A DNA stretch of 45,942 nucleotides from an uncultured Ruminococcus sp. (lineage in GTDB: Bacteria > Bacillota > Clostridia > Oscillospirales > CAG-272), in NCBI GenBank assembly GCA_902783755.1, contig CACZSC010000149.1, forward strand, positions 1-45,942, in the 5' to 3' direction. The notes under the pieces were generated by a model that saw only the letters and a list, made by a program, of their open reading frames with translations, did not search any database and was not told the DNA's origin. Made by a program: the position numbers and the translations under genes. Shown piece by piece: positions 4,534 to 43,219 of this stretch; position 1 is the first letter of the stretch, and each line of letters opens with the position of its first letter.

Positions 4534-4562
4534 TTGTCACCCGAGGCAAAGCATGATATAAT
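4534..4562 (+). promoter_or_regulatory. Sigma-A type promoter for the glycoside-hydrolase-like gene
   Basis: TTGTCA (4534-4539), a 17-nt spacer, then TATAAT (4557-4562) preceded by TG at 4554-4555 (extended -10). The ORF-track TTG start at 4534 coincides with the -35 box. Confidence 0.55.
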
Positions 4563-4599
4563 CCTGGGTGAGCAGTTTATATATCATTGCGGGGAGATT

Positions 4600-18972: not shown

Positions 18973-19750
18973 GATCACCAACATTTCAAAAACCTTCAAC
19001 CCCGGCACCGTCAATGCAAAGACCGCCCTGTCTCATGTGTCCCTTCACCTTGAAAAAGGGGATTTCGTCTCCATAATCGGCGCAAACGGCGCCGGGAAGA
19101 GCACCCTTTTCGGCGCGATTGCAGGAAGCTTTTTCACCGACGAGGGATCCATATTTCTGGATGGTGAAGACATAACCCTTGAACCTGATCATAAAAGGGC
19201 AAAGGTCATGGGAAGACTTTTCCAGGATCCCCAGCTCGGCACCGCGCCCTCCATGAGCATCACTGAGAACCTGGCTCTCGCCTCCGGGAGAGGAGGATGG
19301 ATGTCACGGGTAACAAAAAAGGATATCCAGGATTTCCGGGAAAGGCTCTCCATGCTGAACATGGGGCTGGAAGACAACATGAATCTGCCGGTCGGTCTCC
19401 TGTCAGGCGGCCAGCGTCAGGCAGTCACCCTGCTGATGGCGACTTTCACGACGCCGAAGCTTCTTCTCCTCGACGAGCATACCGCTGCCCTCGACCCCGC
19501 AACGGCCGAGAAGGTGCTGGAAATTACCGAAAGAATAGTAAGGGAAAACAGCATCACCTGTCTTATGGTCACTCACAACATGCAGACCGCTCTGGACCTG
19601 GGCAACAGGACCATAATGATGGACGCGGGAAGGATAATCTATGAGACACAGGGCGAGGAACGGAAACACATGAACGTTTCAGATCTTCTGGTCCTGTTCC
19701 ACAAAAACTCAGGCAAGGAACTGGATACAGACCGTATCCTGCTTTCCTGA
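18965..19750 (+). CDS. ABC transporter ATP-binding protein (COG1101 type; TrpZ-like)
   Basis: The ORF spans 18938-19750. I trimmed the start to the ATG at 18965, which follows the RBS GGAGGTG and overlaps the permease stop by 8 nt. Motifs are Walker A GANGAGKST, signature LSGGQRQ and Walker B LLLLDEHTAALD. Confidence 0.85.
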   Translation: MLRITNISKTFNPGTVNAKTALSHVSLHLEKGDFVSIIGANGAGKSTLFGAIAGSFFTDEGSIFLDGEDITLEPDHKRAKVMGRLFQDPQLGTAPSMSITENLALASGRGGWMSRVTKKDIQDFRERLSMLNMGLEDNMNLPVGLLSGGQRQAVTLLMATFTTPKLLLLDEHTAALDPATAEKVLEITERIVRENSITCLMVTHNMQTALDLGNRTIMMDAGRIIYETQGEERKHMNVSDLLVLFHKNSGKELDTDRILLS

Positions 19751-19764
19751 TCACAGATAGGCGC

Positions 19765-19799
19765 AAAAAAACTGCACACATGGTGCAGTTTTTTGTTTT
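19765..19799. terminator. Bidirectional intrinsic terminator shared by the Trp ABC operon and the convergent sugar locus
   Basis: The sequence is AAAAAAA-ACTGCAC (19771-19777), a 5-nt loop, then GTGCAGT (19783-19789)-TTTTTGTTTT. An A-tract lies upstream and a T-tract downstream. Confidence 0.8.
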
Positions 19800-19805
19800 G
19801 GGTGA

Positions 19806-20828
19806 TCAGTCTGCTGTAAGGCCGGATCTTTCGATACCCTGTACGATATATCTCTGGCCGAAGAGGTAGAGAATTATAAGCGGTGTTATGATCAGCATAC
19901 CGCAGGCGTTCTTGATCGCCGCAGTGTAAAGCGCTGAGCCCGCATAGTTCGTATCCAGTGATCTCGGCACCTTGATGATGTCGGGCAAGAGCGTCGGACC
20001 CGTGATCGAGTAGAACATGTCTGTATAGAAGTTATCTGTCCACTGCCAGCAGAAGGCGAACATGAACACGGTAATGAGCATCGTTCCGGACAGAGGCAGG
20101 ATGATCTTGAAGAACGTCTTGAATATGCCTGAACCGTCAAGGTAGGCGGACTCCTCAAGTTCGTCGGGAATTCCCCTGAAGAACTGCCTCAGCATGAAGA
20201 TGTACAGACCGTTCTTATACGCCAGACCTGTCAGCGACAGGATGTACAGCGGCCAGTTGGTATTCAGCATGTTTATGGGGCTGCCCGTTATCAATTGTAT
20301 TATTCCGAACACGTCAAAGTACTTGAACTTCGTCGCTATGGACAGTGACAGTGTCGCGTGCGGCACGACCATCGTGAATATCACGAGCAGGAACAGTATC
20401 TTGTTGCCCTTGAATTTGAATTTTGCGAACCCGTATGCGATGAAGCAGCACACGAACGTCTGCATCACCGCGCACAGGAAGGACAAGATGAAGGTGTTCC
20501 CCAGTGCCACAAAGTAATTGTTGTCGGTAATAATCGCCTTATATGTCGACAATGTCGGATGCTTCGGAATCAGCCTTACCGTCACGTCCACAAGGTCTTC
20601 TCTCGTCATGAACGAGGACGAGATCTTGGAGAAGAACGGGAACAGGATTATGTACGATATTCCGAGCAGGAGCAGGAATCTGAACAGGTACCAAACCACT
20701 TTTTTAAGTGTGTAGAGGTTCAGGAACTTCGCTTTGAGTCTCTGCAGCAGGGGAGTCCTCTCGAACTCGACCTTGATTCTGTTTTTACTCTCGCGTTTGA
20801 CTTTCGTTTCAGTCTGTGCGTTGTTCAT
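19806..20828 (-). CDS. Carbohydrate ABC transporter permease (MalG/CUT1-like), second permease pair
   Basis: This 340-aa ORF has the EAA-loop ESAYLDGSGIFKTFFKIILP and a Lys-rich N-terminal cytoplasmic extension. Confidence 0.8.
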   Translation of the reverse strand: MNNAQTETKVKRESKNRIKVEFERTPLLQRLKAKFLNLYTLKKVVWYLFRFLLLLGISYIILFPFFSKISSSFMTREDLVDVTVRLIPKHPTLSTYKAIITDNNYFVALGNTFILSFLCAVMQTFVCCFIAYGFAKFKFKGNKILFLLVIFTMVVPHATLSLSIATKFKYFDVFGIIQLITGSPINMLNTNWPLYILSLTGLAYKNGLYIFMLRQFFRGIPDELEESAYLDGSGIFKTFFKIILPLSGTMLITVFMFAFCWQWTDNFYTDMFYSITGPTLLPDIIKVPRSLDTNYAGSALYTAAIKNACGMLIITPLIILYLFGQRYIVQGIERSGLTAD

Positions 20829-20847
20829 TTTTCTCTGCCTCCCTTCC

Positions 20848-21852
20848 CTAGTCTTTTCTCTGATAGAAGACGAACGCGCTGAGCAGCCCGGCCACTATCG
20901 CTATTATGAGTATTACTATCAGGAAGTACATCCAGTACATTGCTGAGGCAAGCACGTCACCTCCGGACCTTTCCGTCACCCCCGCTATATACGACATCAC
21001 TCGGTTATCTCCGGATGTGAAGGAGTCGATTATCGTATATATGGTGTTGACCAGGATCATCGGGCTCACCATCGGAAGAGTGATCTTCCAGAATGTTTCC
21101 CACCCTGAGGCACCGTCGATCGAACATGATTCGTAGATCGCAGGTGAGATGGACTGCAGTCCCGAGAGGAATATGAGCATCTGCACACCGCATCTGTTGA
21201 CTATGTTGAATATGTTGTTGACAAGGCTCACAACATATTCAACGATCTCATTTCCGATCATCATGTTGGAGAACAGCTGCTTTATGTCTATAGCAGATAC
21301 TATCTCCGCGGCTGTGGATGCTTGCCCCGAGCCGTCGTCGATACCCGTTGAGCTGTCCATGTATGATGACAGGATATTGCTGGAATCGATGTCCGCGATA
21401 AGTCCCGTGGTAAGAATGACCGGGATGAAGAATATCGCTCTGAATGCTGCGCGCCCGGCGATCTTCTGGTTGAGGATGATCGCAACGAACAGCGAGAAGA
21501 TGACGATGGAAGGAATGTCGAGGACCAGCTGCCTTATACCGGACACAAGAGTCGTTACGAACGACGCGTCTACGAACAGCGCGTTCCTGTAATTCTGGAA
21601 TCCGACGAAATTGAGCTGGTATCCTCCTCCGATGACCAGCCTCATTTCATTGAAACTGAATCTGACGGAGTCAAATATAATAGGAAGATAGATGAGAATG
21701 AAGCCCACGACGAACGGCATGACGAACAGCCATCCTGCTCTTGCTTTCTTTGCTTCCAGCGATTTTCCGCTTCTTCTCTTCTTTTTAGGAGCGTCAATAA
21801 CGAGTTTCTGTTTCTTGGCGCCTTTCTTTCCTGCGTCAATGTTCAAGTTCAT
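20848..21852 (-). CDS. Sugar ABC transporter permease (MalF/CUT1-like), second permease pair
   Basis: This 334-aa ORF has the EAA-loop YESCSIDGASGWETFWKITLP and a Lys-rich N-terminal tail. The RBS AAGGAGGG lies upstream. Confidence 0.8.
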   Translation of the reverse strand: MNLNIDAGKKGAKKQKLVIDAPKKKRRSGKSLEAKKARAGWLFVMPFVVGFILIYLPIIFDSVRFSFNEMRLVIGGGYQLNFVGFQNYRNALFVDASFVTTLVSGIRQLVLDIPSIVIFSLFVAIILNQKIAGRAAFRAIFFIPVILTTGLIADIDSSNILSSYMDSSTGIDDGSGQASTAAEIVSAIDIKQLFSNMMIGNEIVEYVVSLVNNIFNIVNRCGVQMLIFLSGLQSISPAIYESCSIDGASGWETFWKITLPMVSPMILVNTIYTIIDSFTSGDNRVMSYIAGVTERSGGDVLASAMYWMYFLIVILIIAIVAGLLSAFVFYQRKD

Positions 21853-21868
21853 AATTGGCCCTCCTTTC

Positions 21869-24800
21869 CTAATCTATTCTGACAAATCCGAGTGAAGGAA
21901 CCGTGTACGAAGCTCCTTCATACTCGACAAATACATCGAACGAGTTGTAGTTCAGTATGAATGATACATCTCCTTCATACTTTACCGCCACGACTGAGCC
22001 TCTCTGTGTGGCATACAATTCGTTGATCTCGCCTTCTTTTACTATCCCGAAGTCTTCAAGATCCGGTTTCTGGTTCCTGAGTTCCTCTATCTGATCCGGG
22101 ATATTGGATGTGAACGTCGAGGGATCCCAGACGCCACCGGCTTCCTGGACCGCGATCCTCGCCTTTCTTCTTTCGGTCCTCAGGTTTTCCTCAAGTCTCG
22201 TTATCCTTGATTCTATGTCCGCATAGAACGCTTTCTCAGCTTCGTCCCTTGCTGCCGCGACCTCATCTTCATCAGGAATTCTTTCAGCCTCGAGGAATTC
22301 ATGACCGATTATGTATGAAGTCTGAAGATCTTTTGTCGCCTCGTTCAGTACATCATAGTACTCGTGGATGTCGTCTTTCCAGATGCCGTAGTCGACCGAG
22401 TAGAATTTGCTGAGCGTGTTGTCCTCCTTTAGGACACTGGTGTTCTGATATGAGAGAAGGAAGTAGATCGTAGCTCCGTTCTCGATCGCATTCAGGATAC
22501 CTTCATTGATATCGCCCTGCATGTTGATCGCTTCCCCGGCAAATACCTTCGAAGCGTGATATACGAGACCGGTAAACGGGATCGACTCACTTGCCTTGGT
22601 GTATTTTGAAGATGTAAGGGAAGTATTGAGGATCACGTCTGCATACTTGATCGTAAAGGCGTTGCCGCCGTCGATCATGATGCTCAGACCGTCCTCCTTC
22701 ATTCTTTCAAGCAGATCTGAAGTGAATCCCTTGCTGTCTTCGCGGTGGTAGGGGTCGTCCTCGTCGAAGTCGGAACTCAGGTCCGTGCCGAGGGATGCGA
22801 CCGATATGGCCTTATTGCCGTACTCTGCATATTTCTGTCCGAATGAATCATACAAATACCCGTAGACCGACGGAGAGATAGCAACCTTGAACGTCTGAGT
22901 GAACGTCTGCAGAGCTGCGTTATACTCTCTCTTTGTCGTATATCTGTCATCGATGGTACGGATCGCATGACTCTTCATGGTAAATCCGTCGAACAGTGAA
23001 TCTTTCTGGGCGTATGCAAAGTCGAAATCGGGATACAGTGTGATGTCGTTGTCTTCGGCATACTGTACCAGGTCGCGGAACCCGTCCGCTCCGCCGACAA
23101 CGTCTGACCATGAAAGATTATACGGAACGTTGGAATCAAGCCCTCCGTTCGCATAACCGGTCATCTTGAATCCCAGATTTGTGATGCCCTGGGACTTCAG
23201 ATCAAGATACATCGTCTTTATATCTTCGAAGCTTGTAAGGGCCAGATCTTTTTCAACAGGGAATGAAAGCACCCTGTCCGTCGTCTTCGTGCTTCCGAAG
23301 GTTTCGATGAACAGCGGGATGTCATCCTTCACGTCGGTCATCTTGACCAGGTCTCCCTTTGCCGTCAGATAATCCCTGTAAGCCTTGGCCATCCCGACCC
23401 AGTCGGCACTGTAGTAGTCTTCTACGCCGTTCTCTTCCGCCAGATTCTCATCGGCCAGGAAGATATACTGGATCCTGTAGGACTCTGTATACTTTCTCTT
23501 TGAAGTGACCGTCCATGTTGCGTTTCCGCTGACTGAGATCGAATCCGCCAGATTGTACTGGTCAGATGGTCTCGGAGTGAAGCTTGGGTAAACCGTGTTG
23601 TACGGATGCACAGCTCCTCCGCATGTAGCCATCAGCGTTGCCAGCGAGTCACCTTCCGTGATTATCGCCAGGAATCCGTCCGTATGGGGCGCTATTTCCG
23701 GATGCTCGGCCTGCGGATCGGCGAAGTCTCCCACGTTTGTTACGACACCGTAGACGGGGGTCCGCATGACCTCTGAATGCTGGCCGGTTATCTCATGGTA
23801 TGCATAGTCGGGTCCGTACAGCTGTCCGGCTATGTTGATACTCTGGTTTATGAAATCTTCAAACCGTATGATGGCGCCCGATCCGTCGGGGATCATGGTG
23901 TAACCGGTGAACATGTTTGAACCTGCACCGAAATACGGGAGCATCGTCACGGTCTTGAACTGATACACACTCTCGTCGAACTGAAGGCCGTTCGCGGGAA
24001 GTCTTGCTTCAAGTCCGCTTTCGTTCAGCGTGTACTCTATAGCCATCCTGAATCTCGGCGGAGCGGCGTCAGAACCCACATAGCCTGTAAGTTCGTGGTC
24101 ATATTCAAGTTCTTCGTATGTGTATTCCGGACAGTACCTCTTAACGATATCCTCCGCTTCTCTCAGCTCACGGGCGACGATCGTGTCCGAGCAGACGTAG
24201 ACCGCCATCTGCTGAGTGATCGGGAATGCCGCCTGCATGAGCGCGACCATTTTTTCCGTCAGCGTCGGGTCGTTGGAGTCTTTGTAATCGTAGTATGACA
24301 GAAGCTTGTTTTTGTCCCAGTCGCTTGTTATCTTGCTGAGGATCAGTGTCTCGAAACGTGACTTTTCAATGACCCTCGGCACCAGCCTTGTGACTGCCTC
24401 TTCACCTATTGTATATTCGACCCGGATACCGTTCTTGATCGGTTTCATCACGATCTGGTTCCTGAGAGCCGCCTCGACGTAGCTGTTCATCGTTTTTTCC
24501 ACGCCGTTGTCGAGATATGTGATTATGAGCTGGGACAGAAGCTGCTGCTTTGTCTTTGTCGCCATGAAGTAGTCGGTGTACGCGATGTCATACGGGTTTG
24601 AGAAATAAGTCTGGCCAGTGGACTTGACCCTTACCGCGATCTCACCGGTGAACTCTTCATACCAGAGTTCATACCCGTACGCTTCCCTGACAAGAACCAT
24701 GTCTGAAAGCTTGTCGTCCGCATTTTCGTAATAGCGGGTCATGTAGTTTATGAGCGGGTTCCCGTCTTCATCGACCTTTTCCGCGTAATCAGCCGAAACG

Positions 24801-24877
24801 CTGAACGAAAGGCCTGAGAACAGTCCGCACAACATAACCAGAGTCAGGAATGCTGATAAAATCTTTTTGAATTTCAT
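21869..24877 (-). CDS. Large secreted protein of unknown function (DUF5696-like by recollection); candidate polysaccharide-active enzyme
   Basis: The ORF spans 21869-24922. I trimmed the start to the ATG at 24877, which follows the RBS GGAGGATGAAG. The signal peptide is MKFKKILSAFLTLVMLCGLFSGLSFSVSA. The mature protein is ~970 aa and I could recognise no catalytic family motif. Confidence 0.6.
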   Translation of the reverse strand: MKFKKILSAFLTLVMLCGLFSGLSFSVSADYAEKVDEDGNPLINYMTRYYENADDKLSDMVLVREAYGYELWYEEFTGEIAVRVKSTGQTYFSNPYDIAYTDYFMATKTKQQLLSQLIITYLDNGVEKTMNSYVEAALRNQIVMKPIKNGIRVEYTIGEEAVTRLVPRVIEKSRFETLILSKITSDWDKNKLLSYYDYKDSNDPTLTEKMVALMQAAFPITQQMAVYVCSDTIVARELREAEDIVKRYCPEYTYEELEYDHELTGYVGSDAAPPRFRMAIEYTLNESGLEARLPANGLQFDESVYQFKTVTMLPYFGAGSNMFTGYTMIPDGSGAIIRFEDFINQSINIAGQLYGPDYAYHEITGQHSEVMRTPVYGVVTNVGDFADPQAEHPEIAPHTDGFLAIITEGDSLATLMATCGGAVHPYNTVYPSFTPRPSDQYNLADSISVSGNATWTVTSKRKYTESYRIQYIFLADENLAEENGVEDYYSADWVGMAKAYRDYLTAKGDLVKMTDVKDDIPLFIETFGSTKTTDRVLSFPVEKDLALTSFEDIKTMYLDLKSQGITNLGFKMTGYANGGLDSNVPYNLSWSDVVGGADGFRDLVQYAEDNDITLYPDFDFAYAQKDSLFDGFTMKSHAIRTIDDRYTTKREYNAALQTFTQTFKVAISPSVYGYLYDSFGQKYAEYGNKAISVASLGTDLSSDFDEDDPYHREDSKGFTSDLLERMKEDGLSIMIDGGNAFTIKYADVILNTSLTSSKYTKASESIPFTGLVYHASKVFAGEAINMQGDINEGILNAIENGATIYFLLSYQNTSVLKEDNTLSKFYSVDYGIWKDDIHEYYDVLNEATKDLQTSYIIGHEFLEAERIPDEDEVAAARDEAEKAFYADIESRITRLEENLRTERRKARIAVQEAGGVWDPSTFTSNIPDQIEELRNQKPDLEDFGIVKEGEINELYATQRGSVVAVKYEGDVSFILNYNSFDVFVEYEGASYTVPSLGFVRID

Positions 24878-24896
24878 ATCTTCATCCTCCCCTCTG

Positions 24897-27035
24897 CTAC
24901 ATCCTGTAGGAAATCTCGTCAATGATGTTGGTGACGAAACTTACCATCTTGCCGACCAAGCTTGAGAAGAGCAGGCCCATGAACATCAGGAACGCCATGC
25001 CCACTATCGTCGCGATGCATGTGAGTATGTTCTTTCCGATCGTGTAGTTGTGAGTCGTCATAGTCGCTATGAACACGAGCAGTCCGACCCAGATGAACGC
25101 GATCGTGACGAGCAGTGAGATTATCCCGCCCTCCTCAGCGGTGAGGAAGTTGGATGCTATCGTAGACGGAAGCATCAGAAGCGGGAGAGGCGTCAGGCAG
25201 TAGCATGTCGCAACGAAGATGTCCTTCATGCTGCCTTCGCCTTCAAACAGCGTCGTGAGACACCAGTTTGCGACCACCCACAGGAGCAGCGGCACCACGA
25301 CAGCGGTGATGGCTCCAAGCAGGTTGAACGTTGCATTGGGCCTCGGGTTGAAAATATATCCCATTCCGATCGTGTAGTAGAAATACACCATGACCGTGAT
25401 GAGAAGGATTATGAACGCGCTCCGCACCGAGCCTCTCTTTTCATGTTTCAGATCCCAGAATCCGTCAAACGGATGGAATATCACATGGAAAGCATAGAGC
25501 AGTTCCTCTTTCAGGCTCTTTCTTCCGACTTTCAGCGCGGTCCTCTTGTTTACCTTTCCTGCGAAACCGAAGAATTTCGCGATGAGGAAACATGCGACCA
25601 CGATCACTATGGGAATTATCCAGAAGAATTTGTCAGCCCACGATTTCCTTATCTCCTTGTAGGCTGCGGAATAACTCTCGGTCTCCTTGGCTGCCTTGAA
25701 GTACTCCATCGATTCTTCGTATTTTCCCTGACGGAGAAGCGATTTACCTATATTTATATATGCCTCGTCGAAGTTGTTGTTTCTCTTCAGGATCTCGTTC
25801 CAGTCGTCGATGGTAACATCGTACATACGTTCGTTGTTGTGCTGCAGGGCGCTGATGAGAAGGTCGGCGTACTCCGTCCTCCTGAACACCACGATGTTTT
25901 TGTTCGTTTTGTCAAGGAGAAGGATGTTAGACCCCTGATATGCGATCGCCCTCACGCTGTCGATATTGCCCATCTGGGAACCGTTCTTGTCGCCGAATGC
26001 GAACAGAAGGCTTCCGTTGGAATCGTAGGTAAATACTTTCGATCTCTTTTCATCTATGATCGACCAGGTTCCCTCGGGCCCCATGGCCACGTCCACGACC
26101 TTGGAGGTGCCCGTGATCGTATCTTCTTCCACCGTCATCGCGTTCGGCACTTCCGTCATTATCTCTCCGGAAGGGGGGAAGAAGCCGTTTCTGGCCATGA
26201 CGTCTATACCCGAAGCATTAAGCTTCTTGACCGGCGCGTGGTCTCCGGATGTGTCTCCGGCCGCCACCGAGATCTCTATGGATGAAGTGGTAACATATAT
26301 GAAGTTCTGGTCGTCTATGGTGATGTTGTTGAACTCCGTGGGAACGTAGTCCTGCATCATCTCCCGCTGCTCCTTTGTCTGGAACCTTCTCCAGAGGAGC
26401 TCGAGGGGCGATACCTCGACTTTTGCCGCTCCGATGAACCCGAAGAACTCGCCTTCCATGTTGATGACTATAACGCCCTGATATGTCGTGGATGAAACCA
26501 CGAACAGACGTCCGTAATCGTCGGCGACGCAGGCGATCGGTTTGTAGATGTCGCCCTCTTCAAAGTAGCTGGACACCGGCTGGGGAATGATCTTCACGAA
26601 ATTGCAGTCAAGGTCGAAAAGCACGATCCTGTTGTTGTCAGTGTCGCAGATGTAGATGTTGTATTCGTCCACGAAGACCCCGGACGGGTTCCTGAACGAA
26701 TCGGGTACTCCCTGCTCGTTGACAAACCCGGATATTTCATGCTGTATCTTAAAGTATTTGTCCAGCACAAGGACCTTCCCGAGGGAAGCGTCTGCTATAT
26801 AGACCTTTTCGTCAGGCCCGACGAACAGGTCTCTCATATCCGAACCGAGTTCGTACGGCACTCCCATGTACGCCGCATCGACTATCATGTCGGGCACGTA
26901 CGCGTCGGGCGAGGAAAGGACCTGGCCCTGCGACGAATATGTGTACGTCGCGTAGGGAACGTTTGCGAACGCCACCGTCGGCAGGATCAAGAGGAACATC
27001 AGGGTAAGGGCTATTGCCGAAATCAATTTCTTCAT
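24897..27035 (-). CDS. Signal peptide + NHL-type beta-propeller repeats + TPR-like linker + C-terminal Yip1-like polytopic membrane domain
   Basis: This 712-aa ORF has the signal MKKLISAIALTLMFLLILPTVAFA. Repeated propeller blades read YIADASLGKVLVLD, IYICDTDNNRIVLFD, LFVVSSTTYQGVIVIN, SKVFTYDSNGSLLFAFG and ILLLDKTNKNIVVFR. A TM helix FFWIIPIVIVVACFLIAKFF follows, then five more hydrophobic helices that resemble Yip1. Confidence 0.65.
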   Translation of the reverse strand: MKKLISAIALTLMFLLILPTVAFANVPYATYTYSSQGQVLSSPDAYVPDMIVDAAYMGVPYELGSDMRDLFVGPDEKVYIADASLGKVLVLDKYFKIQHEISGFVNEQGVPDSFRNPSGVFVDEYNIYICDTDNNRIVLFDLDCNFVKIIPQPVSSYFEEGDIYKPIACVADDYGRLFVVSSTTYQGVIVINMEGEFFGFIGAAKVEVSPLELLWRRFQTKEQREMMQDYVPTEFNNITIDDQNFIYVTTSSIEISVAAGDTSGDHAPVKKLNASGIDVMARNGFFPPSGEIMTEVPNAMTVEEDTITGTSKVVDVAMGPEGTWSIIDEKRSKVFTYDSNGSLLFAFGDKNGSQMGNIDSVRAIAYQGSNILLLDKTNKNIVVFRRTEYADLLISALQHNNERMYDVTIDDWNEILKRNNNFDEAYINIGKSLLRQGKYEESMEYFKAAKETESYSAAYKEIRKSWADKFFWIIPIVIVVACFLIAKFFGFAGKVNKRTALKVGRKSLKEELLYAFHVIFHPFDGFWDLKHEKRGSVRSAFIILLITVMVYFYYTIGMGYIFNPRPNATFNLLGAITAVVVPLLLWVVANWCLTTLFEGEGSMKDIFVATCYCLTPLPLLMLPSTIASNFLTAEEGGIISLLVTIAFIWVGLLVFIATMTTHNYTIGKNILTCIATIVGMAFLMFMGLLFSSLVGKMVSFVTNIIDEISYRM

Positions 27036-27049
27036 AACTGCCTCCCCCC

Positions 27050-27928
27050 TTAGTCTTTCATACCGCTCGAACCCATGGTCTCGATGATATTCGACTGCGA
27101 GATCACGAATACGGCTATAGGCACTACCATCATGACTACGGTCGCTGCCGCCGACGCTCCGGTTCTCGTGATGCCGGCCGCAGTGATCTGTCCGATCGCG
27201 TAGTTAAGAGTCTTCAGCTGTTCCGAATAGATATATTCCGAAGAGCCCATCTGCCATAGGCCCTGGAACGAGAAGATTATCAGCGTCAGCCAGGCCGGCT
27301 TGACCATCGGCATGGCTATCGACCAGAAGGTCCGGAATTCCGAAGCACCGTCCAGTCTGGCTGATTCAAGGATCGCAGTGGACACGTTCGACTCCATGAA
27401 CTGCTTCATAAGGTACAGTCCCAGGGTCGAACACCACGCAGGCACGATGACGGCCAGATACGTATCTATCCATCCGAGCCATGTCAGGATGATGAATTTC
27501 ACTATGCTTCCGACAGTCGCGGAGAACATGAGAGATTTCTGGATGATCCAGAAGCACTGCTTTCCGCCCGGGAAGTCGATCTTTGCAAGAGCGTATGCAC
27601 AGATGGAAGAGAGCACCAGGTTTCCGAACGTGCCTCCCACTGATATGAGCACCGTGTTGAAGATGTATCTCGAGAACGGTACCCACGAGTCGCTCATGAG
27701 GTTAAAGAGGTTTGCGAAGTTGTCCAGCGTTGGGTGCTCAACATAGAACCTCGGAGGGAAGTAGAACAGTTCATTCAGCGGTTTCAGAGACTGAATCACC
27801 GTATAGTACATGGGAATGAACATGAACAGTCCGAGTATCGCGAGCACGATTGTAATTCCGACGTCGCCTCCCGCTGAACGGTTGAGGACGACCTGATGTC
27901 GTCTGGTTCTTAGTCTCTTCATGCTCAC
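27050..27928 (-). CDS. Carbohydrate ABC transporter permease (MalG/CUT1-like), first permease pair
   Basis: This 292-aa ORF has the EAA-loop LESARLDGASEFRTFWSIAMP. It overlaps the upstream permease by 4 nt (ATGA). Confidence 0.85.
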   Translation of the reverse strand: MSMKRLRTRRHQVVLNRSAGGDVGITIVLAILGLFMFIPMYYTVIQSLKPLNELFYFPPRFYVEHPTLDNFANLFNLMSDSWVPFSRYIFNTVLISVGGTFGNLVLSSICAYALAKIDFPGGKQCFWIIQKSLMFSATVGSIVKFIILTWLGWIDTYLAVIVPAWCSTLGLYLMKQFMESNVSTAILESARLDGASEFRTFWSIAMPMVKPAWLTLIIFSFQGLWQMGSSEYIYSEQLKTLNYAIGQITAAGITRTGASAAATVVMMVVPIAVFVISQSNIIETMGSSGMKD

Positions 27929-28869
27929 TCACCCAACTTCGAAATCAATTTGGTGACCAGCAGGTTGGCACCTATCATTATCAAGAACATCAGGAACGTT
28001 ATCGCAGAAGCATACCCGACTTCCCATCGGTTGCCCTGATATTCGCTTAAATGGTGAGACAATGTATAACCGACGTAATCCGTCGGAGGGTTGCCCGCCA
28101 GAGCGGAAACGATTCCGCCGAATCCGAAGGATCCGGTGATCGACATGATCGCGCCGAACATCAGCTGCGGCTTCATAGAGGGCAAGGTGATGTACCAAAG
28201 CTCCTGCCACCTGTTGCGCACCCCGTCGATGGAACCCGCCTCAAACAGGCTCTTGTCGATTCCCTGAAGACCCGCTATGAACGCCAAGAACGACGTTCCC
28301 AGTGATGTCCACAGGGCGACCATGATACACAGGGGCATGATGTACTTCGTATTCTGGAACCATAGTATCGGTGTGTCTATAAGCCCCAGCTTCAGCAGAA
28401 GACCGTTGACATATCCGTATGAGTCGCTGGAGAACATCGTAGCCCAGATCAGGTAGACGTTTCCGGAAATGGACGGTGCATAGAATATCAGCGTCGCCAC
28501 GGAACGGATCCTCGGGGAAAGCTCGTTGAGGAACCATGCCACCGCGAATGAAATTATGTACGATGCCGGCCCGACTATCACGGCGAATATCATCGTGTTC
28601 TTCAGAGCCGTCAGGAAAAGGTCATCGTCAAGGAACAGGGTTATGTAGTTATCCATGAAGATGAACTTCGGCGGCTCCAGCATGTTGAATGAAGTGAAGC
28701 TCAGCAAGAGAGAGAGGAAGACCGGGACTATTGTGAATAGGAAGAACAGGATCATAAAGGGGGCAACCATGAAGTATGCCATCTTGTTCCTTCTTACCAG
28801 GAACCATGTCCACTGCGCCTTCGTCATCTCACGGCGGGTCTTCACCTTTTTTTCCGTATTCTTAGACAT
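27925..28869 (-). CDS. Sugar ABC transporter permease (MalF/CUT1-like), first permease pair
   Basis: This 314-aa ORF has the EAA-loop FEAGSIDGVRNRWQELWYITLP. Confidence 0.85.
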   Translation of the reverse strand: MSKNTEKKVKTRREMTKAQWTWFLVRRNKMAYFMVAPFMILFFLFTIVPVFLSLLLSFTSFNMLEPPKFIFMDNYITLFLDDDLFLTALKNTMIFAVIVGPASYIISFAVAWFLNELSPRIRSVATLIFYAPSISGNVYLIWATMFSSDSYGYVNGLLLKLGLIDTPILWFQNTKYIMPLCIMVALWTSLGTSFLAFIAGLQGIDKSLFEAGSIDGVRNRWQELWYITLPSMKPQLMFGAIMSITGSFGFGGIVSALAGNPPTDYVGYTLSHHLSEYQGNRWEVGYASAITFLMFLIMIGANLLVTKLISKLGE

Positions 28870-28898
28870 GTTATTTCTCCTTCATCTAGACGCGCGCC

Positions 28899-31800
28899 TT
28901 ATTTGTATTTGAGGTACGATTCAAATGCATCAGCCGCATCTGAAAGATACTTTGCTATCTGATCTGCCGAACTGTTGCCGATGGTCGTGAGCTCTTCGGC
29001 TGCTGCCCTTAGCTCCTCGATGCTCTGGCTCTTGATGGCGGCTTTTGCTTTCGCCACCGCAGGGTTCGTCGCCGTATCCGCCTCCAGCAGCTCTATCGCT
29101 TCCTCGGCCTGACCAAGCCTCTTGGACGCGAGAGTCTGTCCGACCTCCAGAGTCTCCAGATCGAACTCCGTTCTCTTTCTGGTGATCTCTTTGTTTATCG
29201 CGTTGATGTGACCCAGCAGGGACTGTACGGGATCGGCGTGGTTGTTGTATGCGTTCGCAAATGCGAATCCTGTGTAACGGTCTATGATATACGTTCCGGG
29301 GTACTGCGGTATCGCCGTCGTGTGGTCTTTCTGTTTCATCAGCTGTGAGTATTCTCTGGATGTCCAGGGGAGCTCTTCGAGCGCCTCTATATTGGCCGTC
29401 GCATTCTTTGCGGCGTCACCGAGGATCGCGACCAGCTCGTTTGAATAGTCGACCTGGAACTTCGTGTCTGTATACCAGCACATGAATTTCCATGCGGATT
29501 CGATGTCGTCCGCCCCAGACATCATGACCAGTGCGCTGGAGGAAGTGACCGAAGTATTGTCAATGGTCCCGTCTTCCCTTTCCACACCGGGTATCGGGCC
29601 GAACTCCCAGAGCCCGGCAAGCTCCGTCGCGAAGATTATGATGTTGTTGTAGGTGGTGTATCCCCCTATGAACAGCGGCATCTCGCCAGACCTGAACCTG
29701 TTGACCGCGTTGTATGATACCGGCAGCGAGTACTGCGTGAACATGTTGCACAGCGTCTCGAACGACTCCAGCGCAAGGTTGGAGTCCAGGTTGATCCTCA
29801 TTCCGTCATCCGCCCACAGGTCTCCTCCCATCTGGTACAGGAAGAGCTTGTAGCTGTTCGGGATCCCTATCTCCATGTTGTTGAACTGGAGCACCGGGAT
29901 CATGGCGAGGAGATCGTCCCAGGTCTTGGGAACGTCGTATCCCAGGTCGGCTATTATGTCTGTCCTGTAGAACAGCATGTCCCAGTCCTGGGTGTCCGGC
30001 AGACCGTATGTCTTGCCGTACAGCGTCATCGGGATGATGGCCGCCGGAGTGAACCTTTCGGTTATCTCATGGAAGTTCGAGAATATCTCCCTGAGTTCCG
30101 CGTTCTTGCTTTTAACCTCATCGGTATCCTCAGGCTGATCTTCATACGCTTCCGGATTCACGGCGTATACCGCGGAACGGATCGCGTACTGGATGGGATC
30201 GACGCCCGTGCCGGGCAGAGCGACTTCCGGGCCTATGCCCGCAAGCACCGACGGCAGCAGCGTGCCTCCCGCCACAAGTTTCAGGGATGCATCTATGTTG
30301 TACTGGGGACCGAAATCGTTGTCTATCAGGGTCCTCATGATCTGGGCCTGATCACGGCCTGTGGTGACCCAGACTTCTATTTCCTTCTCGGCATTCTCCC
30401 TGCTCTTTGTCTCATCGGAGGCACCGAGCGAGTTGTAGTCGTTGAAGAATGTCGCAAAGAACTGCTTGATCTCATACCAGAGGGACTGGAAGAAGTTCGC
30501 CTCGGCCTTAGGCTTCTCAGCCGATGCCGGCTGTATGTTGATCCAGTCTATTTCAAGAGGCTGTTTCTTGACGTTGTTGATCCATTCGCTGAGAGTACCG
30601 ACCTTGTTCTTCAGGTCGTTTATGTTCTTTGCTATCTGCTCCTCGTCCGTTCCCATCTTTAAGAGAAGCCTCTGGATCTCATCGATCGTCGCGGAGTTCT
30701 CGGACTTGATGTTCGCCATGTTCTCGACATAGCTCGTGACATCCCGCAGCACCTGTCCCTGGATCACGAAATCCCGGACCACGTCCGGAAGGACTCGTCC
30801 GAATCCGTAGTCTCTGTATTCGTCGGGATTGGCGCCCGTCAGCTTGATGACCTGCAGATAGTCATTGTTGAGCGAATTGAGCACCTTCGAGACCGTACCG
30901 ACCACGTTTCCCATTTCCCCGAGAGTCACCTCGAGTCTGATGGTATGCTTTCCCGGCTCCAGCCAGAACTGGAATGTATCGGCACCGTCGTTGGCCGCTT
31001 CAACCTGCCAGTTGTTGTTGTAATTGAACTTGAGGTAGTTCGCCTCCTCGAACGGAACTACGCCGTCCACGTAGAGCCTTCTCGAGGTGTACATGCCCGT
31101 CAGCTCGTTCTGGCGGAACCTGAACACTATCTCGTACATGCCCGCAGTGGTGACATCGAATTCGTATTCCACCCACTGACCGGGTGTCACCCACTTTTCT
31201 CCGCCTATGGAGTTGAGCCTTATCTTCGCAGGGTCCTGCGGCTCCGACATGGCGGACTTCCTGTCGTACACGGGGTAGATTGTATAGTCCGAAACCTTGG
31301 ACGGCGTCTCGGCATTGATATGTATGATCTCGTCCGTCACGGCTTCGGCTTTCCCGCTTGAATAACTTGCATAGGAGGTCTTGTCCTTGTAGGGATATAT
31401 CCTCAGCCCTCCGATGACCGATTCCTCTCTGACCGAACCGAGGCCGATGGTGTTCTCCCCGGCTTTGAGGTAGATCTGGAACGGATTCGGGTAATAGCCG
31501 TTCGGGTCATTCACGGTGTATGTCGCCCATTCGTAGACCACCGACGACACCGGACGGAGCTCGTTCCCCTGGGAGTCGGTCTCGAACCTGCCGTTGTCCG
31601 CGTACTGGTTGACCCAGGTCTTTTTCATTATGAGGTCGCGGACTTCGGCGAACGGAACTGCCCCGTTGATATACAGAGTCTTTTCCACCGAGTTCGTTTT
31701 TGATGTGACCGGGCAATAATCGATATCGATCGCGTACATTCCCTCTTCCGGCACCGTCACCTTCCAGGTCACTATACCGTCATCGGCGATCCGCAGCGAC

Positions 31801-32108
31801 GTTCCCTCCCGGCCGTTGAAATCCCTTTCGACCTTAACTTCGACAGTGGTCAGCTGCTTGTCGTACTTGGCTGCGGGGATGTAGATGTCCTCCGTACCCT
31901 TTCCGACCCCGCCGTACATCTCGGTGTACTCGTTGTACGACTTCGTCTTGAGCGCATCCGTTACCTCCTGCAGCGTGTTCCTTTGACTGTCCTGGGCATT
32001 ATCCCCGGACGAATCAGAGTCCGCTGCGACAATAAGCGGAAGCGACGTCAGGCATATGATTGCCGCCAGGCCGAGGCTGAGCAATCTTTTACCAACGGGT
32101 TTTCTCAT
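28899..32108 (-). CDS. Giant (1069-aa) extracellular solute-binding protein. It has an N-terminal duplicated beta-sandwich (CBM-like) region, a family-1 SBP core and a C-terminal helical tail.
   Basis: The signal/anchor is MRKPVGKRLLSLGLAAIICLTSLPLIVAA. Two related modules are present: IVTWKVTVPEEGMYAIDIDY..LYINGAVPFAEV and WVEYEFDVTTAGMYEIVFRF..LYVDGVVPFEEA. The SBP-like core reads IEVWVTTGRDQAQ..LPDTQDWDMLFYRTD. The RBS AGGAGGAAGACA lies upstream. Confidence 0.7.
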   Translation of the reverse strand: MRKPVGKRLLSLGLAAIICLTSLPLIVAADSDSSGDNAQDSQRNTLQEVTDALKTKSYNEYTEMYGGVGKGTEDIYIPAAKYDKQLTTVEVKVERDFNGREGTSLRIADDGIVTWKVTVPEEGMYAIDIDYCPVTSKTNSVEKTLYINGAVPFAEVRDLIMKKTWVNQYADNGRFETDSQGNELRPVSSVVYEWATYTVNDPNGYYPNPFQIYLKAGENTIGLGSVREESVIGGLRIYPYKDKTSYASYSSGKAEAVTDEIIHINAETPSKVSDYTIYPVYDRKSAMSEPQDPAKIRLNSIGGEKWVTPGQWVEYEFDVTTAGMYEIVFRFRQNELTGMYTSRRLYVDGVVPFEEANYLKFNYNNNWQVEAANDGADTFQFWLEPGKHTIRLEVTLGEMGNVVGTVSKVLNSLNNDYLQVIKLTGANPDEYRDYGFGRVLPDVVRDFVIQGQVLRDVTSYVENMANIKSENSATIDEIQRLLLKMGTDEEQIAKNINDLKNKVGTLSEWINNVKKQPLEIDWINIQPASAEKPKAEANFFQSLWYEIKQFFATFFNDYNSLGASDETKSRENAEKEIEVWVTTGRDQAQIMRTLIDNDFGPQYNIDASLKLVAGGTLLPSVLAGIGPEVALPGTGVDPIQYAIRSAVYAVNPEAYEDQPEDTDEVKSKNAELREIFSNFHEITERFTPAAIIPMTLYGKTYGLPDTQDWDMLFYRTDIIADLGYDVPKTWDDLLAMIPVLQFNNMEIGIPNSYKLFLYQMGGDLWADDGMRINLDSNLALESFETLCNMFTQYSLPVSYNAVNRFRSGEMPLFIGGYTTYNNIIIFATELAGLWEFGPIPGVEREDGTIDNTSVTSSSALVMMSGADDIESAWKFMCWYTDTKFQVDYSNELVAILGDAAKNATANIEALEELPWTSREYSQLMKQKDHTTAIPQYPGTYIIDRYTGFAFANAYNNHADPVQSLLGHINAINKEITRKRTEFDLETLEVGQTLASKRLGQAEEAIELLEADTATNPAVAKAKAAIKSQSIEELRAAAEELTTIGNSSADQIAKYLSDAADAFESYLKYK

Positions 32109-32276
32109 GTTGTCTTCCTCCTGGTATGAAAAGGCTCTCTTTTTGCGGAAAGCCCGAAAAACTACTTCATCAGGCGCGTTTTCCCGTCCTTCCGAAGGAC
32201 CGAAAACTGCAGCTTCGGGGCCCGTTTTCAGGGCATCTGTTATGCAAAAACTATTTTTTACGCCATCATATAGTCT

Positions 32277-32305
32277 ATGATATCACACTACCCCCGCAAT
32301 GTCAA
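32277..32305 (-). promoter_or_regulatory. Candidate sigma-A promoter of the sugar locus
   Basis: On the minus strand: TTGACA (32305-32300), a 17-nt spacer, then TATCAT (32282-32277) preceded by TG. This leaves a leader of ~160 nt before the ATG at 32108. Confidence 0.5.
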
Positions 32306-32784
32306 TAAAATCAAGGGATTTCAAGGGGTTGCGAAGGCATGAAAACCGTCCGTTTCATCGCTGTTTCCGCGCTTGTTTTTGTCAGTTTTGCACACAACTT
32401 TTCAGATATCCGGAAATGATGCAAAAAACGCTCTTTTAACCCCGGATCCGTCGTTATCTTTGGGTAAATATACATTACCCCGGCCTGTCTTATCTTGGGC
32501 AGCTGTATACGATATGTCGGACCTCCCTCCCTGTGCGGCGAGCGGGTAATAATAAATTACCTTTTCCCAAGGAGCAGGAAAAGCCTTCTTTTGTCTTTTT
32601 GCACACCCGCCGGGGGCGATTTTTGTATAAAACCAACAAATTTTAGCTTATTTTTTCTATACGTATACAAAGTGCACAAATACGCTGTCGGGACAGTTTC
32701 GCCCTGCCGGCTCCCCGGCGTCCCGCCTTTGGCGTATCCCGCACTTTACGGGTGACATCCCGGCGCGGCTCCGTTAATTATCCG

Positions 32785-32813
32785 TTGACAAAGTTATTTT
32801 TTAAATATATAAT
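32785..32813 (+). promoter_or_regulatory. Consensus sigma-A promoter of the glucokinase gene
   Basis: TTGACA (32785-32790), a 17-nt spacer, then TATAAT (32808-32813). Confidence 0.65.
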
Positions 32814-32853
32814 CTGTACGTGAAATTCCGGACGGAAGAAAGGACGCAGACAT

Positions 32854-33816
32854 ATGTATTACATAGGTGTTGACCTCGGCGGGACAAACATAGCCGTAGG
32901 CATCGTTGACGAAGAGTTCAAGATCGTTAAGAAAGGAAGCGTTCCCACAAAACCCGAACGCGGCGTCGACCCGATCATCGAGGATATGGCAGGCCTTTCA
33001 TACAGGCTCATGGAAGACACGGGGATCACACTGGATGACATCGCGTGGGTAGGCGTTGCGGCCCCGGGAACAGCGAACCGGGACACAGGCATCCTCGAGT
33101 ACGCCAACAACATCCCCTTCCTTAAATACCCGCTCGCGGAAAGGATGTCTTCCCTGATGGGCGGAAAGCCCGTGTATATAGAAAATGACGCCAACGCCGC
33201 GGCAAAGGCGGAAGCCATCGTAGGCGCAGGAGCCGGATACCCGTACTTCGTGATGATCACCCTCGGCACAGGTCTGGGCGGAGGCATCATACTCAACGGA
33301 CAGGTCTATTCAGGCTTCAATTTTGCGGGAGCCGAGCTGGGCCACATGGTCATAGAAGAGGGCGGCAGACCCTGTACCTGCGGAAGGCGCGGCTGCTGGG
33401 AAGCATACAGCTCCGCCACCGGTCTTTCAAAGATCACTGTTGACCACATCGTCAGGGCACGCAAGAAAGGCATACCGACAGTTATGGAGGACATGATCGG
33501 AGGAGATCTGTCCAGAGTTTCTGCCAGGACCGCATTCAATGCCATGAAGAGCGGCGACAAAGTCGGCAGGGAGGCCGTCGACGAATACATCAAATACCTG
33601 GCGTCGGGCCTCGTGAACATCATCAACATCTTCCAGCCCAACGTCCTGGCCATAGGCGGCGGGGTGTGCAACGAGGGCGACTACCTGCTGAAGCCCCTGT
33701 TCGAGAGAATCTGGAAAGAGACATACACGAAGGAGGGCACTCCCAGGACGAAAGTCGTGATAGCCAAGCTCGGAAACGACGCCGGCATCATCGGCGCGGC
33801 AGTCCTCGGACTGTAA
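32854..33816 (+). CDS. glcK: ROK-family glucokinase
   Basis: This 320-aa ORF begins directly with the ATP-binding motif MYYIGVDLGGTNIAVGIV, so it has no N-terminal HTH and is a kinase rather than a ROK repressor. It also has the ROK zinc motif GHMVIEEGGRPCTCGRRGCWEAY. Confidence 0.85.
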   Translation: MYYIGVDLGGTNIAVGIVDEEFKIVKKGSVPTKPERGVDPIIEDMAGLSYRLMEDTGITLDDIAWVGVAAPGTANRDTGILEYANNIPFLKYPLAERMSSLMGGKPVYIENDANAAAKAEAIVGAGAGYPYFVMITLGTGLGGGIILNGQVYSGFNFAGAELGHMVIEEGGRPCTCGRRGCWEAYSSATGLSKITVDHIVRARKKGIPTVMEDMIGGDLSRVSARTAFNAMKSGDKVGREAVDEYIKYLASGLVNIINIFQPNVLAIGGGVCNEGDYLLKPLFERIWKETYTKEGTPRTKVVIAKLGNDAGIIGAAVLGL

Positions 33817-43199: not shown

Positions 43200-43219
43200 A
43201 TTAATCGAAAGGAACCGAC

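Follow-up and report, generated by a model that had tools for sequence, protein, structure and literature searches.

A 45,942-nt stretch of DNA from an uncultured Ruminococcus sp. (contig CACZSC010000149.1; hereafter the window) carries on its minus strand a cassette of seven co-directional genes, which encode a giant solute-binding protein (SBP), two pairs of ATP-binding cassette (ABC) permeases (P1/P2 and P3/P4), a membrane protein with a Yip1 domain (YIP) and a secreted protein of the Pfam family DUF5696. The cassette spans 19806-32108 and is transcribed in the order SBP-P1-P2-YIP-DUF5696-P3-P4. All seven genes were located in an open reading frame listing of the window:

28899-32108, minus strand: SBP, 1069 aa; PDB sequence match to Lin1841 (E 3e-9), AlphaFold2 (AF2) model and Foldseek matches
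27925-28869, minus strand: P1, MalF/UgpA-type permease, 314 aa; BPD_transp_1 (E 2e-14), EAA motif EAGSIDGVRN...ITLP
27050-27928, minus strand: P2, MalG/UgpE-type permease, 292 aa; Pfam and NCBIfam matches, EAA motif ESARLDGASE...IAMP
24897-27035, minus strand: YIP, 712 aa; signal peptide, extracellular NHL beta-propeller (about 30-400), TPR (about 400-465), one transmembrane (TM) helix, cytoplasmic segment (about 500-550) and five-TM Yip1 domain
21869-24877, minus strand: DUF5696 protein, 1002 aa; Pfam DUF5696 (PF18952, E 6e-139), signal peptide, AF2 fold
20848-21852, minus strand: P3, MalF/SugA/AlgM1-type permease, 334 aa; BPD_transp_1, EAA motif ESCSIDGASG...ITLP
19806-20828, minus strand: P4, MalG/SugB-type permease, 340 aa; BPD_transp_1 (E 7e-11), EAA motif EESAYLDGSG...ILP

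Pfam searches of the cassette recognise four BPD_transp_1 permeases together with DUF5696, Yip1, NHL and TPR, and an SBP_bac_1-like domain was identified by Pfam and PDB sequence searches. Within the cassette, Pfam and NCBIfam reveal no ATPase, no transcription factor and no recognised domain of a glycoside hydrolase (GH) or polysaccharide lyase (PL). The genes are tightly packed. Counted from the 19806 end, the intergenic gaps are 19, 16, 19, 14, -4 and 29 nt, the negative value being a 4-nt overlap of P1 with P2. The cassette is bounded by the following elements:

19766-19794, unstranded: intrinsic bidirectional terminator, 12-bp stem flanked by an A-run and, on the opposite side, by a T-run
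32109-32276, minus strand: 5´ leader, about 170 nt long, with the ribosome-binding site (RBS) AGGAGGAAG at its end; the RBS and the leader hairpins are partly conserved
32277-32305, minus strand: sigma-70-type operon promoter, TTGACA, 17-nt spacer with TG, TATCAT

In a consensus scan, the promoter (32305-32277) matches 11 of the 12 consensus positions and carries an extended -10 TG. Eight aligned related loci all share the TTGAC of the -35 hexamer, and most of the -10 region is kept. The terminator closes the operon and serves the convergent ABC ATPase gene (stop at 19750) as well. Promoter-like and terminator-like matches inside the cassette occur at the chance level given by shuffled sequence (16 versus 12.1 +/- 3.2 and 10 versus 10.5, respectively). 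Rfam detects no known RNA element in the long upstream region, in the leader or anywhere else in the window.

The cassette is strictly conserved. Relatives of the DUF5696 protein were sought by a degenerate-pattern scan of one genome per species, which returned up to 214 places; the locus comparisons rest on the best 80 of these. Synteny was scored by tblastn of eight window proteins against the related loci, and neighbours were judged where the flank was long enough. In each of the 60 related loci with the full set of seven genes, these keep the same order on one strand. Where the flank allows judgement, DUF5696 is accompanied by YIP in 71/71 loci, by P1 and P2 in 66/66, by the SBP in 63/63 and by P3 and P4 in 52/52. 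The related genomes span 40-89% identity in the DUF5696 protein, and the synteny persists down to 40-43%. Three independent look-ups in a protein-indexed collection gave the same gene picture. The tight spacing, the single strong and conserved promoter, the single terminator and the synteny in 60/60 loci are consistent with transcription of the seven genes as a single operon. A conserved eighth gene downstream of P4 was considered and rejected, as the first co-directional gene varies (GH123, GH43/32, DUF6259, leucine-rich repeat, NrdD, amidase and others), which indicates that the cassette is complete as seven genes.

All 80 loci come from metagenome-assembled genomes (MAGs) of uncultured Clostridia, Oscillospiraceae or Eubacteriales from the gut, rumen included, of goat, sheep, buffalo, deer, rabbit, mouse and human. 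The closest relative among them is the goat-rumen MAG RGIG3705, with 89% identity. P2 is the most conserved cassette gene. Mean identities to the window proteins over the 60 loci are 76% for P2, 72% for P1, 70% for P3, 69% for P4, 62% for YIP, 55% for DUF5696 and 53% for the SBP. The extracellular, ligand-facing parts thus evolve fastest, as would be expected if paralogues and orthologues track different glycans. In the MAG RGIG4734 (Bacillota), three different DUF5696 genes lie on three contigs (L024, L065 and L082) and are 53-57% identical to the window protein, which suggests several paralogous cassettes in one genome, as with polysaccharide utilisation loci (PULs). One locus, L008 (JAGARL010000319.1), is deposited as the archaeon 'Methanocorpusculum sp.' and bears a complete bacterial cassette. 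Its layout and per-gene identities to the window almost equal those of the Oscillospiraceae locus L009, and it is almost certainly a mis-binned contig. Genes for other glycosidases lie directly downstream of P4 in some relatives: GH123_cat in L001 (15181-16836) and L007, and a GH43/GH32-like gene in L004 (15358-16494). Such genes, which like those of GH42 are occasional near the related loci, might hint at lineage-specific substrates.

The original prediction, made from the sequence of the window, had described seven co-directional minus-strand genes with gaps of 29 nt or less or overlaps, one promoter upstream (32277-32305) and one terminator downstream, and thus a probable single operon. It had also described two complete MalF/MalG-type pairs, the second with Lys-rich N-terminal tails, only one, giant SBP, an NHL propeller fused to a Yip1-like polytopic domain between the permease pairs, and no ATPase, transcription factor or recognisable GH/PL motif. 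The open reading frame listing, the consensus scan, the domain searches, the EAA motifs and the N-termini all agree with this description, with the terminator placed at 19766-19794 and a TPR module added to the membrane protein. The spacing, promoter, terminator and synteny are consistent with the operon, and the gene-neighbourhood check that the prediction had proposed for DUF5696 is the 60-locus comparison given above.

The DUF5696 protein matches PF18952 with 464.7 bits (gathering cutoff 25.6) over positions 2-577 of the 612 in the hidden Markov model (HMM). Its ATG start yields a signal peptidase I (SPI)-type signal peptide that ends in SVSA, followed by DY; a TTG at 24922 is also open. 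The AF2 model, which was built on 44 homologues (predicted local distance difference test score, pLDDT, 75; predicted template modelling score, pTM, 0.73), consists of an N-terminal beta-sandwich and beta-rich region, a (beta/alpha)8 barrel at about 520-860, a 43-residue helix (870-912) and a C-terminal beta module. The loop 699-714 is modelled with low confidence. This arrangement agrees with the GH129 fold, which comprises a beta-sandwich, a (beta/alpha)8 barrel and a C-terminal beta domain. In a Foldseek search of the PDB, the top match is the GH129-like enzyme ZGAL_3152 (5opq; E 2.6e-26, template modelling score on the target, TMt, 0.66), followed by the GH129 enzyme NagBb (5wzn; E 1.7e-19), with TMt values of 0.65-0.67 over the two. 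GH101 endo-alpha-N-acetylgalactosaminidases (about 1e-12) and GH31 and GH36 alpha-glycosidases (about 1e-11) follow at lower ranks. The top 50 structural matches are all GH catalytic domains (GH129, GH129-like, GH101, GH31 and GH36), some of which were crystallised as fusion or scaffold constructs.

The two best fold matches are an alpha-N-acetylgalactosaminidase (NagBb, 5WZN) and a 3,6-anhydro-D-galactosidase (ZGAL_3152, also DagB, 5OPQ). The published layout of ZGAL_3152 comprises a beta-sandwich, a TIM barrel and an Ig-like domain, with the essential residues D202, D486 and E517 (PMC5698469), and agrees with the AF2 model of the DUF5696 protein. The catalytic nucleophile D435 of NagBb corresponds to D486 of ZGAL_3152. 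The authors of the ZGAL_3152 study considered that 16% identity to NagBb warrants a separate family (PMC5698469). Compared with both enzymes, the DUF5696 protein, which is secreted and 1002 aa long, has an additional helical region and ends in a conserved module. The genomic settings also differ: ZGAL_3152 belongs to a carrageenan PUL of Zobellia (PMC5698469), whereas the DUF5696 gene stands among ABC permease genes and a Yip1 gene.

The link to GH129 is made by the Pfam HMM and the fold, and does not extend to significant sequence similarity with characterised GH129 members; structural alignment with GH129 gives only 11-12% identity. The sole match of the family profile to a PDB sequence is NagBb, a weak one (E 0.11) over barrel strands 1-3. 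Conversely, a 133-residue stretch of NagBb scores 37.6 bits on Pfam DUF5696 (cutoff 25.6), and also weakly matches GH101 and DUF6259. A search for full-length GH129 sequences with the NagBb fragment returned short metagenomic fragments only, and NagBb-like fragments of this kind bear precomputed labels for both PF18952 and PF12905 (GH101). Pfam 'DUF5696' thus already takes in the founding GH129 enzyme NagBb, and the DUF label hides a link to a characterised CAZy family. Within the GH129/GH101 alpha-glycosidase superfamily, the DUF5696 protein is therefore a deep, highly divergent and uncharacterised secreted branch, and not a wholly new family. On account of its SPI-type signal peptide and its GH129/GH101/GH31-like fold, it is a credible candidate for an extracellular retaining alpha-glycosidase. 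The original prediction had regarded the 1002-aa protein as one of unknown function and as a candidate for a new extracellular glycan-degrading enzyme family. The structure-based search that it had suggested (AF2 with Foldseek) provides the protein with a fold, for which the best matches are GH129 or GH129-like. The candidacy holds as far as an extracellular glycosidase is concerned, given the signal peptide and the fold, and fails for the wholly new family, since NagBb passes PF18952 and GH129 and GH129-like enzymes head the structural matches.

Conservation within the family is also informative. HMMER, run exhaustively against 1.84 billion cluster representatives (50% identity clusters), found 4101 clusters at E <= 1e-3, of which 1591 reach E <= 1e-30. 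The detailed comparison was made with the top 150 representatives, all of which are at least 39% identical to the window protein. Near-universal residues (93-100% of the 150) are E281, D331, D357, D439, E525, D617/D619 (Asp or Glu), D703, R712, N739, H774, N785 and E799. This pattern of conserved carboxylates with His and Arg would fit an active site built from the N-terminal domain and the barrel. The length of the top 150 relatives ranges from 724 to 2545 aa (median 1250), and the variation falls behind the barrel, ahead of the conserved C-terminal beta module (about 50 aa). The longest forms contain an Ala/Leu/Glu/Asp-rich insert of at least 900 residues (about 900 in L081), which is presumably helical and may act as a variable stalk or form a domain of helical repeats. 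Pfam gives no match for the extra region in 24 long forms (1.8-2.5 thousand aa). The orthologues measure from about 1000 up to 2545 aa. Long ones are found at L081 (1275-7076) and L083 (10001-15775), and include P0313, P0294, P0338 and others.

The SBP is 2.5 times the normal size. Its AF2 model (pLDDT 79) comprises a signal peptide, two beta-sandwiches (75-238 and 262-395), a four-helix spacer (399-514), a MalE-type domain (575-980) and a variable helical bundle (993-1068). The SBP_bac_1-like sequence match is confined to about 570-980 of the 1069 residues. The beta-sandwiches resemble carbohydrate-binding modules (CBMs) of the CBM6/35 type, with a weak CBM_35 match in the window SBP and CBM_35, CBM_6 and SBP_bac_1/8 matches in its relatives. 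Foldseek aligns the domain 575-980 with oligosaccharide SBPs (E about 1e-15, TMt 0.70-0.79), and these structural neighbours bind cycloisomaltooligosaccharides, sophoro-oligosaccharides and maltodextrins. The protein therefore contains a MalE-class binding domain, as expected of a CUT1 importer, and is the one SBP for two pairs of transmembrane domains (TMDs). Its signal peptide is of the SPI type and has no lipobox. Across the relatives, no conserved lipobox, LPXTG motif or C-terminal TM helix was found in either the SBP or the DUF5696 protein, and the two window proteins are likewise devoid of any recognised anchor.

YIP stands next to DUF5696 in all 71 loci. Its Yip1 domain (PF04893) scores 57.1 bits against a cutoff of 28.6 over residues 516-685, where TM helices are predicted, which places it within the family. 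PDB sequence matches are to NHL propellers (2.8e-11) and to CTPR (7.7e-16). NHL and TPR domains are classic protein-interaction modules. The most conserved stretch of the protein is the cytoplasmic juxtamembrane segment 501-550. In Bacillus, the Yip1 protein YknW modulates the assembly of the YknXYZ ABC complex (PMC4887032), and the cassette is similar to YknWXYZ in that it pairs the gene of a Yip1-domain membrane protein with ABC transporter genes. The two systems differ in other respects. YknYZ belongs to the MacB-type exporters and has a membrane-fusion protein, whereas the cassette transporters are type I importers and no MacB-type permease or ATPase or membrane-fusion domain was found in the locus with Pfam and NCBIfam. 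YknW also lacks the NHL propeller and the TPR ectodomain of YIP. The original prediction had seen in YIP a possible membrane scaffold, sensor or channel that couples depolymerisation to two importers. Because the secreted proteins are anchorless, because YIP alone in the cassette joins large extracellular interaction modules with a membrane domain, and by analogy with YknW, the most plausible role of YIP is that of a scaffold or assembly factor in the membrane, which would hold the enzyme and the SBP at the transporters.

All four permeases carry the EAA---G---------I-LP motif of CUT1 TMDs, so that each pair has the EAA loops on which docking of an ABC ATPase depends. P3 matches AlgM1 (2e-10) and SugA among PDB sequences, and P4 matches SugB (1.7e-17) and MalG (3e-9) and also resembles AlgM2. 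P3 has a Lys-rich N-terminus and an enlarged extracellular loop (about 90 aa) that joins TM3 to TM4, and the cytoplasmic N-terminus of P4 is rich in Lys and Arg. Identity between the pairs is low (P1/P3 26%, P2/P4 23%), and their divergence is ancient. With MalF/MalG-type TMDs, EAA loops and a MalE-type binding domain, the cassette resembles the CUT1 importers MalEFGK2, LpqY-SugABC and AlgQ-AlgM1M2SS. It differs from them in the size of the SBP, its CBM-like and helical modules and its missing lipid anchor, and in the presence of two heterodimeric translocators for a single SBP.

In almost all loci, a long intergenic region of about 750-1400 nt precedes the SBP gene. In the eight-locus alignment, the conserved blocks comprise the TTTGTGCA block, two 17-bp palindromes of the form GGTAA-N7-TTACC, the TTGACA/TATAAT promoter, the hairpin leader and the RBS. 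In the window, the elements beyond the promoter and the gene that follows them are:

32463-32479, unstranded: operator-like palindrome 2, GGTAATGTATATTTACC
32545-32561, unstranded: operator-like palindrome 1, GGTAATTTATTATTACC
32622-32680, minus strand: conserved upstream block, TTTGTGCA..TGTATA.GT.TAGAAAAAA..TTTGT(G/T), defined in the eight aligned loci
32854-33816, plus strand: divergent ROK sugar kinase gene (Pfam ROK 5e-64; TIGR00744, 239 bits against a cutoff of 260)

Palindromes 1 and 2 are the only GTAA-N7-TTAC matches in the whole window (at 32560 and 32478). About 44/60 loci carry one or more such sites within 1 kb upstream of the SBP gene, and about 37/60 a pair. The density there is 1.43 per kb, compared with 0.017 per kb elsewhere in the loci, an 84-fold enrichment. 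The spacing within a pair is about 104 bp (ten helical turns) or about 83 bp (eight). In most loci, one or more TTTGTGCA boxes precede palindrome 1 by about 80-130 nt, and in L001-L080 the palindromes and boxes are found 320-850 nt ahead of the SBP gene. The palindromes are probably operators for a regulator that acts in trans, and the twin, in-phase arrangement looks like that for a regulator, encoded elsewhere, which binds cooperatively or with looping. Such control in trans, to which the conserved twin-operator region points, offsets the lack of a regulator gene in the cassette. Assignment of the palindromes to cre (CcpA) sites was rejected, since their half-site spacing is three bases longer (GTAA-N7-TTAC as opposed to the N4 of cre). 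The ROK protein is glucokinase-like, starts directly with the ATPase fold and has no helix-turn-helix (HTH) domain. It adjoins the cassette upstream in 22/60 loci, which is frequent but not obligatory.

Together, these features lead us to favour, with moderate confidence, a reading in which the cassette is co-transcribed and self-contained, an operon with which uncultured Clostridia (Oscillospirales-like) of gut and rumen harvest glycans. The secreted DUF5696 enzyme would trim or depolymerise an alpha-linked glycan at the cell surface, the hydrolytic activity and the alpha specificity being taken from the superfamily. The CBM-bearing SBP would capture the polymer and its oligosaccharide products and feed P1/P2, and P3/P4, encoded directly behind the enzyme gene, would import a second product, delivered by the giant SBP, by an SBP encoded elsewhere or by the enzyme directly. 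A shared MsmX/MsmK-type ATPase encoded elsewhere would power both importers, and YIP would hold the enzyme and the SBP at the transporters. Expression would be controlled in trans through the twin palindromic operators upstream of the promoter. Where present, the adjacent glucokinase-like ROK kinase would phosphorylate the released hexose. The glucokinase-like neighbour and the structural neighbours of the SBP are weak hints toward hexose or alpha-glucan-type products; kinship with GH129/GH101 would equally allow host O-glycans as substrate.

Several points weigh against this reading. The phmmer search of the DUF5696 protein against all PDB chains gave no match at E <= 1, and we know of no close relative with known activity or substrate. 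D699, D736 and D789, picked from predicted strand ends as catalytic residues, were rejected, being kept in only 79, 82 and 98 of the 151 aligned sequences (the 150 cluster representatives and the window protein). A barrel-only sub-profile (600-868) gave only spurious matches in the PDB, such as interferon-gamma, and did not map the catalytic residues; equivalents of NagBb Asp435 and Glu478 were not identified in the DUF5696 protein by profile searches or by conservation. The cassette encodes no cytoplasmic glycosidase, which is unusual for an oligosaccharide importer, and one SBP for two translocators is, to our knowledge, not a documented arrangement. The contacts of YIP with the enzyme, the SBP or the permeases are putative. 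The ROK kinase may be a bystander, given that it is adjacent in only 22/60 loci. Finally, no MsmX/MalK-type nucleotide-binding subunit was found in the locus or in the window; the sole ABC_tran gene in the window (18938-19750, 270 aa) belongs to a convergent BMP-type ABC_sub_bind/BPD_transp_2 system. Firmicute CUT1 importers ordinarily share an ATPase of the MsmX/MsmK/MsiK type, and its location elsewhere in the genome is the norm in Firmicutes and in Actinobacteria. Since sharing is established for such systems, the missing ATPase would be expected to act in trans.

The layout of the cassette itself invites other accounts. YIP, DUF5696, P3 and P4 might make up a machine of their own, in which the DUF5696 protein replaces an SBP, docks on P3/P4 while the YIP scaffold keeps it in place, and passes its hydrolysis product directly to this second importer; the giant SBP would then serve P1/P2 only. 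The SBP-permease-permease layout is mirrored twice, with DUF5696 in the SBP slot of the second unit, and P3/P4 were never seen in these loci without DUF5696 and YIP (52/52 and 71/71). The enlarged extracellular loop of P3, the missing anchor motif of the enzyme and its highly conserved C-terminal beta module, which follows a helical region so variable that the proteins range from 724 to 2545 aa, would also suit docking. However, no ABC importer is known to us that works without a binding-protein fold, and the AF2 model and Foldseek reveal no SBP-like domain in DUF5696. The P3 loop is also less conserved than the P3 TM segments, and an orphan SBP elsewhere or sharing of the giant SBP accounts for the layout more conservatively, so we regard the enzyme-fed importer as unlikely. 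A surface complex in which YIP tethers the anchorless enzyme and the CBM-SBP to the two translocators, and in which the enzyme loads the second one directly, would be of a kind not recognised before; it is possible but likewise unlikely. Doubt may also fall on the enzyme: the DUF5696 protein could be a transglycosylase, or a non-catalytic glycan-binding or surface-structure protein with a retained GH-like fold, in an operon that mainly takes up oligosaccharides produced by other members of the community. GH31- and GH13-like folds are known to include transglycosylases and lyases, the canonical beta4/beta5 residues picked at the outset are not conserved, structural identity to GH129 is low and the model loop at 699-714 is uncertain. 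Yet conservation of carboxylates, His and Arg at 93-100% over 150 clusters of at least 39% identity is typical of an active site, and no fold other than GH catalytic domains appears among the top 50 structural matches. ZGAL_3152 uses an essential Asp from its N-terminal domain (PMC5698469), which parallels the strongly conserved N-domain motifs of DUF5696. A protein that is not a hydrolase is accordingly doubtful in our estimation.

The remaining alternatives fit less well. A role for the cassette in turning over or remodelling an envelope glycopolymer that the cell itself makes (capsule, exopolysaccharide or wall polysaccharide), in place of foraging, could explain why the locus holds neither a cytoplasmic GH nor a substrate-specific regulator, would suit its housekeeping chromosomal context (rimP-nusA-infB upstream), and could draw on an enzyme and an SBP that associate with the wall for want of an anchor. 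However, MalFG-type TMDs and a MalE-type SBP are those of importers, a CBM-bearing SBP and a glucokinase-like neighbour fit catabolism, at least one MAG (RGIG4734) has three paralogous DUF5696 genes in a PUL-like manner, and GH123, GH43/32 and GH42 neighbours occur from time to time. We consider the envelope explanation improbable. A chance juxtaposition, or separate transcription units made up of two unrelated ABC systems with unrelated genes between them, could appeal to the low identity of the permease pairs (23-26%) and to the weak internal promoter-like matches. These matches are at the chance level, as are the terminator-like ones, the gaps are at most 29 nt or the genes overlap, and the same order and strand in 60/60 loci at 40-89% DUF5696 identity effectively refutes chance; this explanation is thus extremely improbable.

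The glycan-harvesting operon favoured here can be compared with the Gram-positive PULs (gpPULs), which are defined by a polysaccharide-degrading enzyme, carbohydrate transport and a transcriptional regulator in the locus (Sheridan et al. 2016, PMC5320581). As in gpPULs, a secreted candidate glycan enzyme is combined with an ABC carbohydrate importer in a gut Firmicute, and CBMs are available for glycan capture. In contrast to gpPULs, the CBMs are located on the SBP and not on the enzyme, there are two permease pairs for one SBP, an NHL-TPR-Yip1 protein is present, and neither a regulator gene nor a cytoplasmic GH is encoded. The transport system of the definition is present and the enzyme is represented by a protein with a predicted GH fold; no HTH or other regulator domain was found in 19806-33816. 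The cassette would work like a Gram-positive PUL yet, as no regulator gene lies in the locus, it falls outside the published definition. In the library that was searched, no paper mentions DUF5696 or PF18952 and none was found that describes a Yip1 protein in a sugar ABC system, in line with the original statement that this gene combination is not a described one. The cassette differs from all described ABC sugar systems that were found in its single oversized and anchorless CBM-SBP, its two translocators, its obligatory NHL-TPR-Yip1 partner and its uncharacterised branch of the GH129 superfamily.

Other genes of the window were observed in passing. A Shango-type anti-phage defence system is located at 39952-45448 on the plus strand (PADLOC: SngA E 6e-31, SngB 1e-156, SngC 1e-236), with genes for a TerB_N protein, a BrxC/D-like ATPase and a DEAD helicase. 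On the minus strand, 36921-39470 encodes an 849-aa fusion of unusual architecture, in which a xylose-isomerase-like TIM barrel (AP_endonuc_2) is joined to a complete acyl-CoA ligase (AMP-binding and C-terminal domains); a gene for a PaaK-like phenylacetate-CoA ligase lies nearby at 34023-35327. A 1000-aa protein with a weak match to GH106 (alpha-L-rhamnosidase) is encoded at 4534-7536 on the plus strand, 12 kb from the cassette in the housekeeping region rimP-nusA-infB. This gene is not syntenic with the cassette in other loci.

The DUF5696 family is very large, and the link of the cassette protein to GH129/GH101 gives a testable hypothesis, namely that of a retaining alpha-glycosidase. The invariant cassette defines the partners for a reconstitution: the CBM-fused SBP, the two importers and the Yip1/NHL protein. 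If the surface complex described above exists, it would physically couple depolymerisation and import, as a Gram-positive functional analogue of the Bacteroidetes Sus 'utilisome', and would provide the first function of a bacterial Yip1 domain in nutrient uptake. The cassette may yield a new GH family or subfamily together with its substrate, the first instance of bacterial Yip1 proteins with a function in import, and an explanation of how anchorless surface proteins stay on these Gram-positive cells. It may also improve the annotation of carbon flow in abundant uncultured lineages that produce butyrate or degrade fibre.

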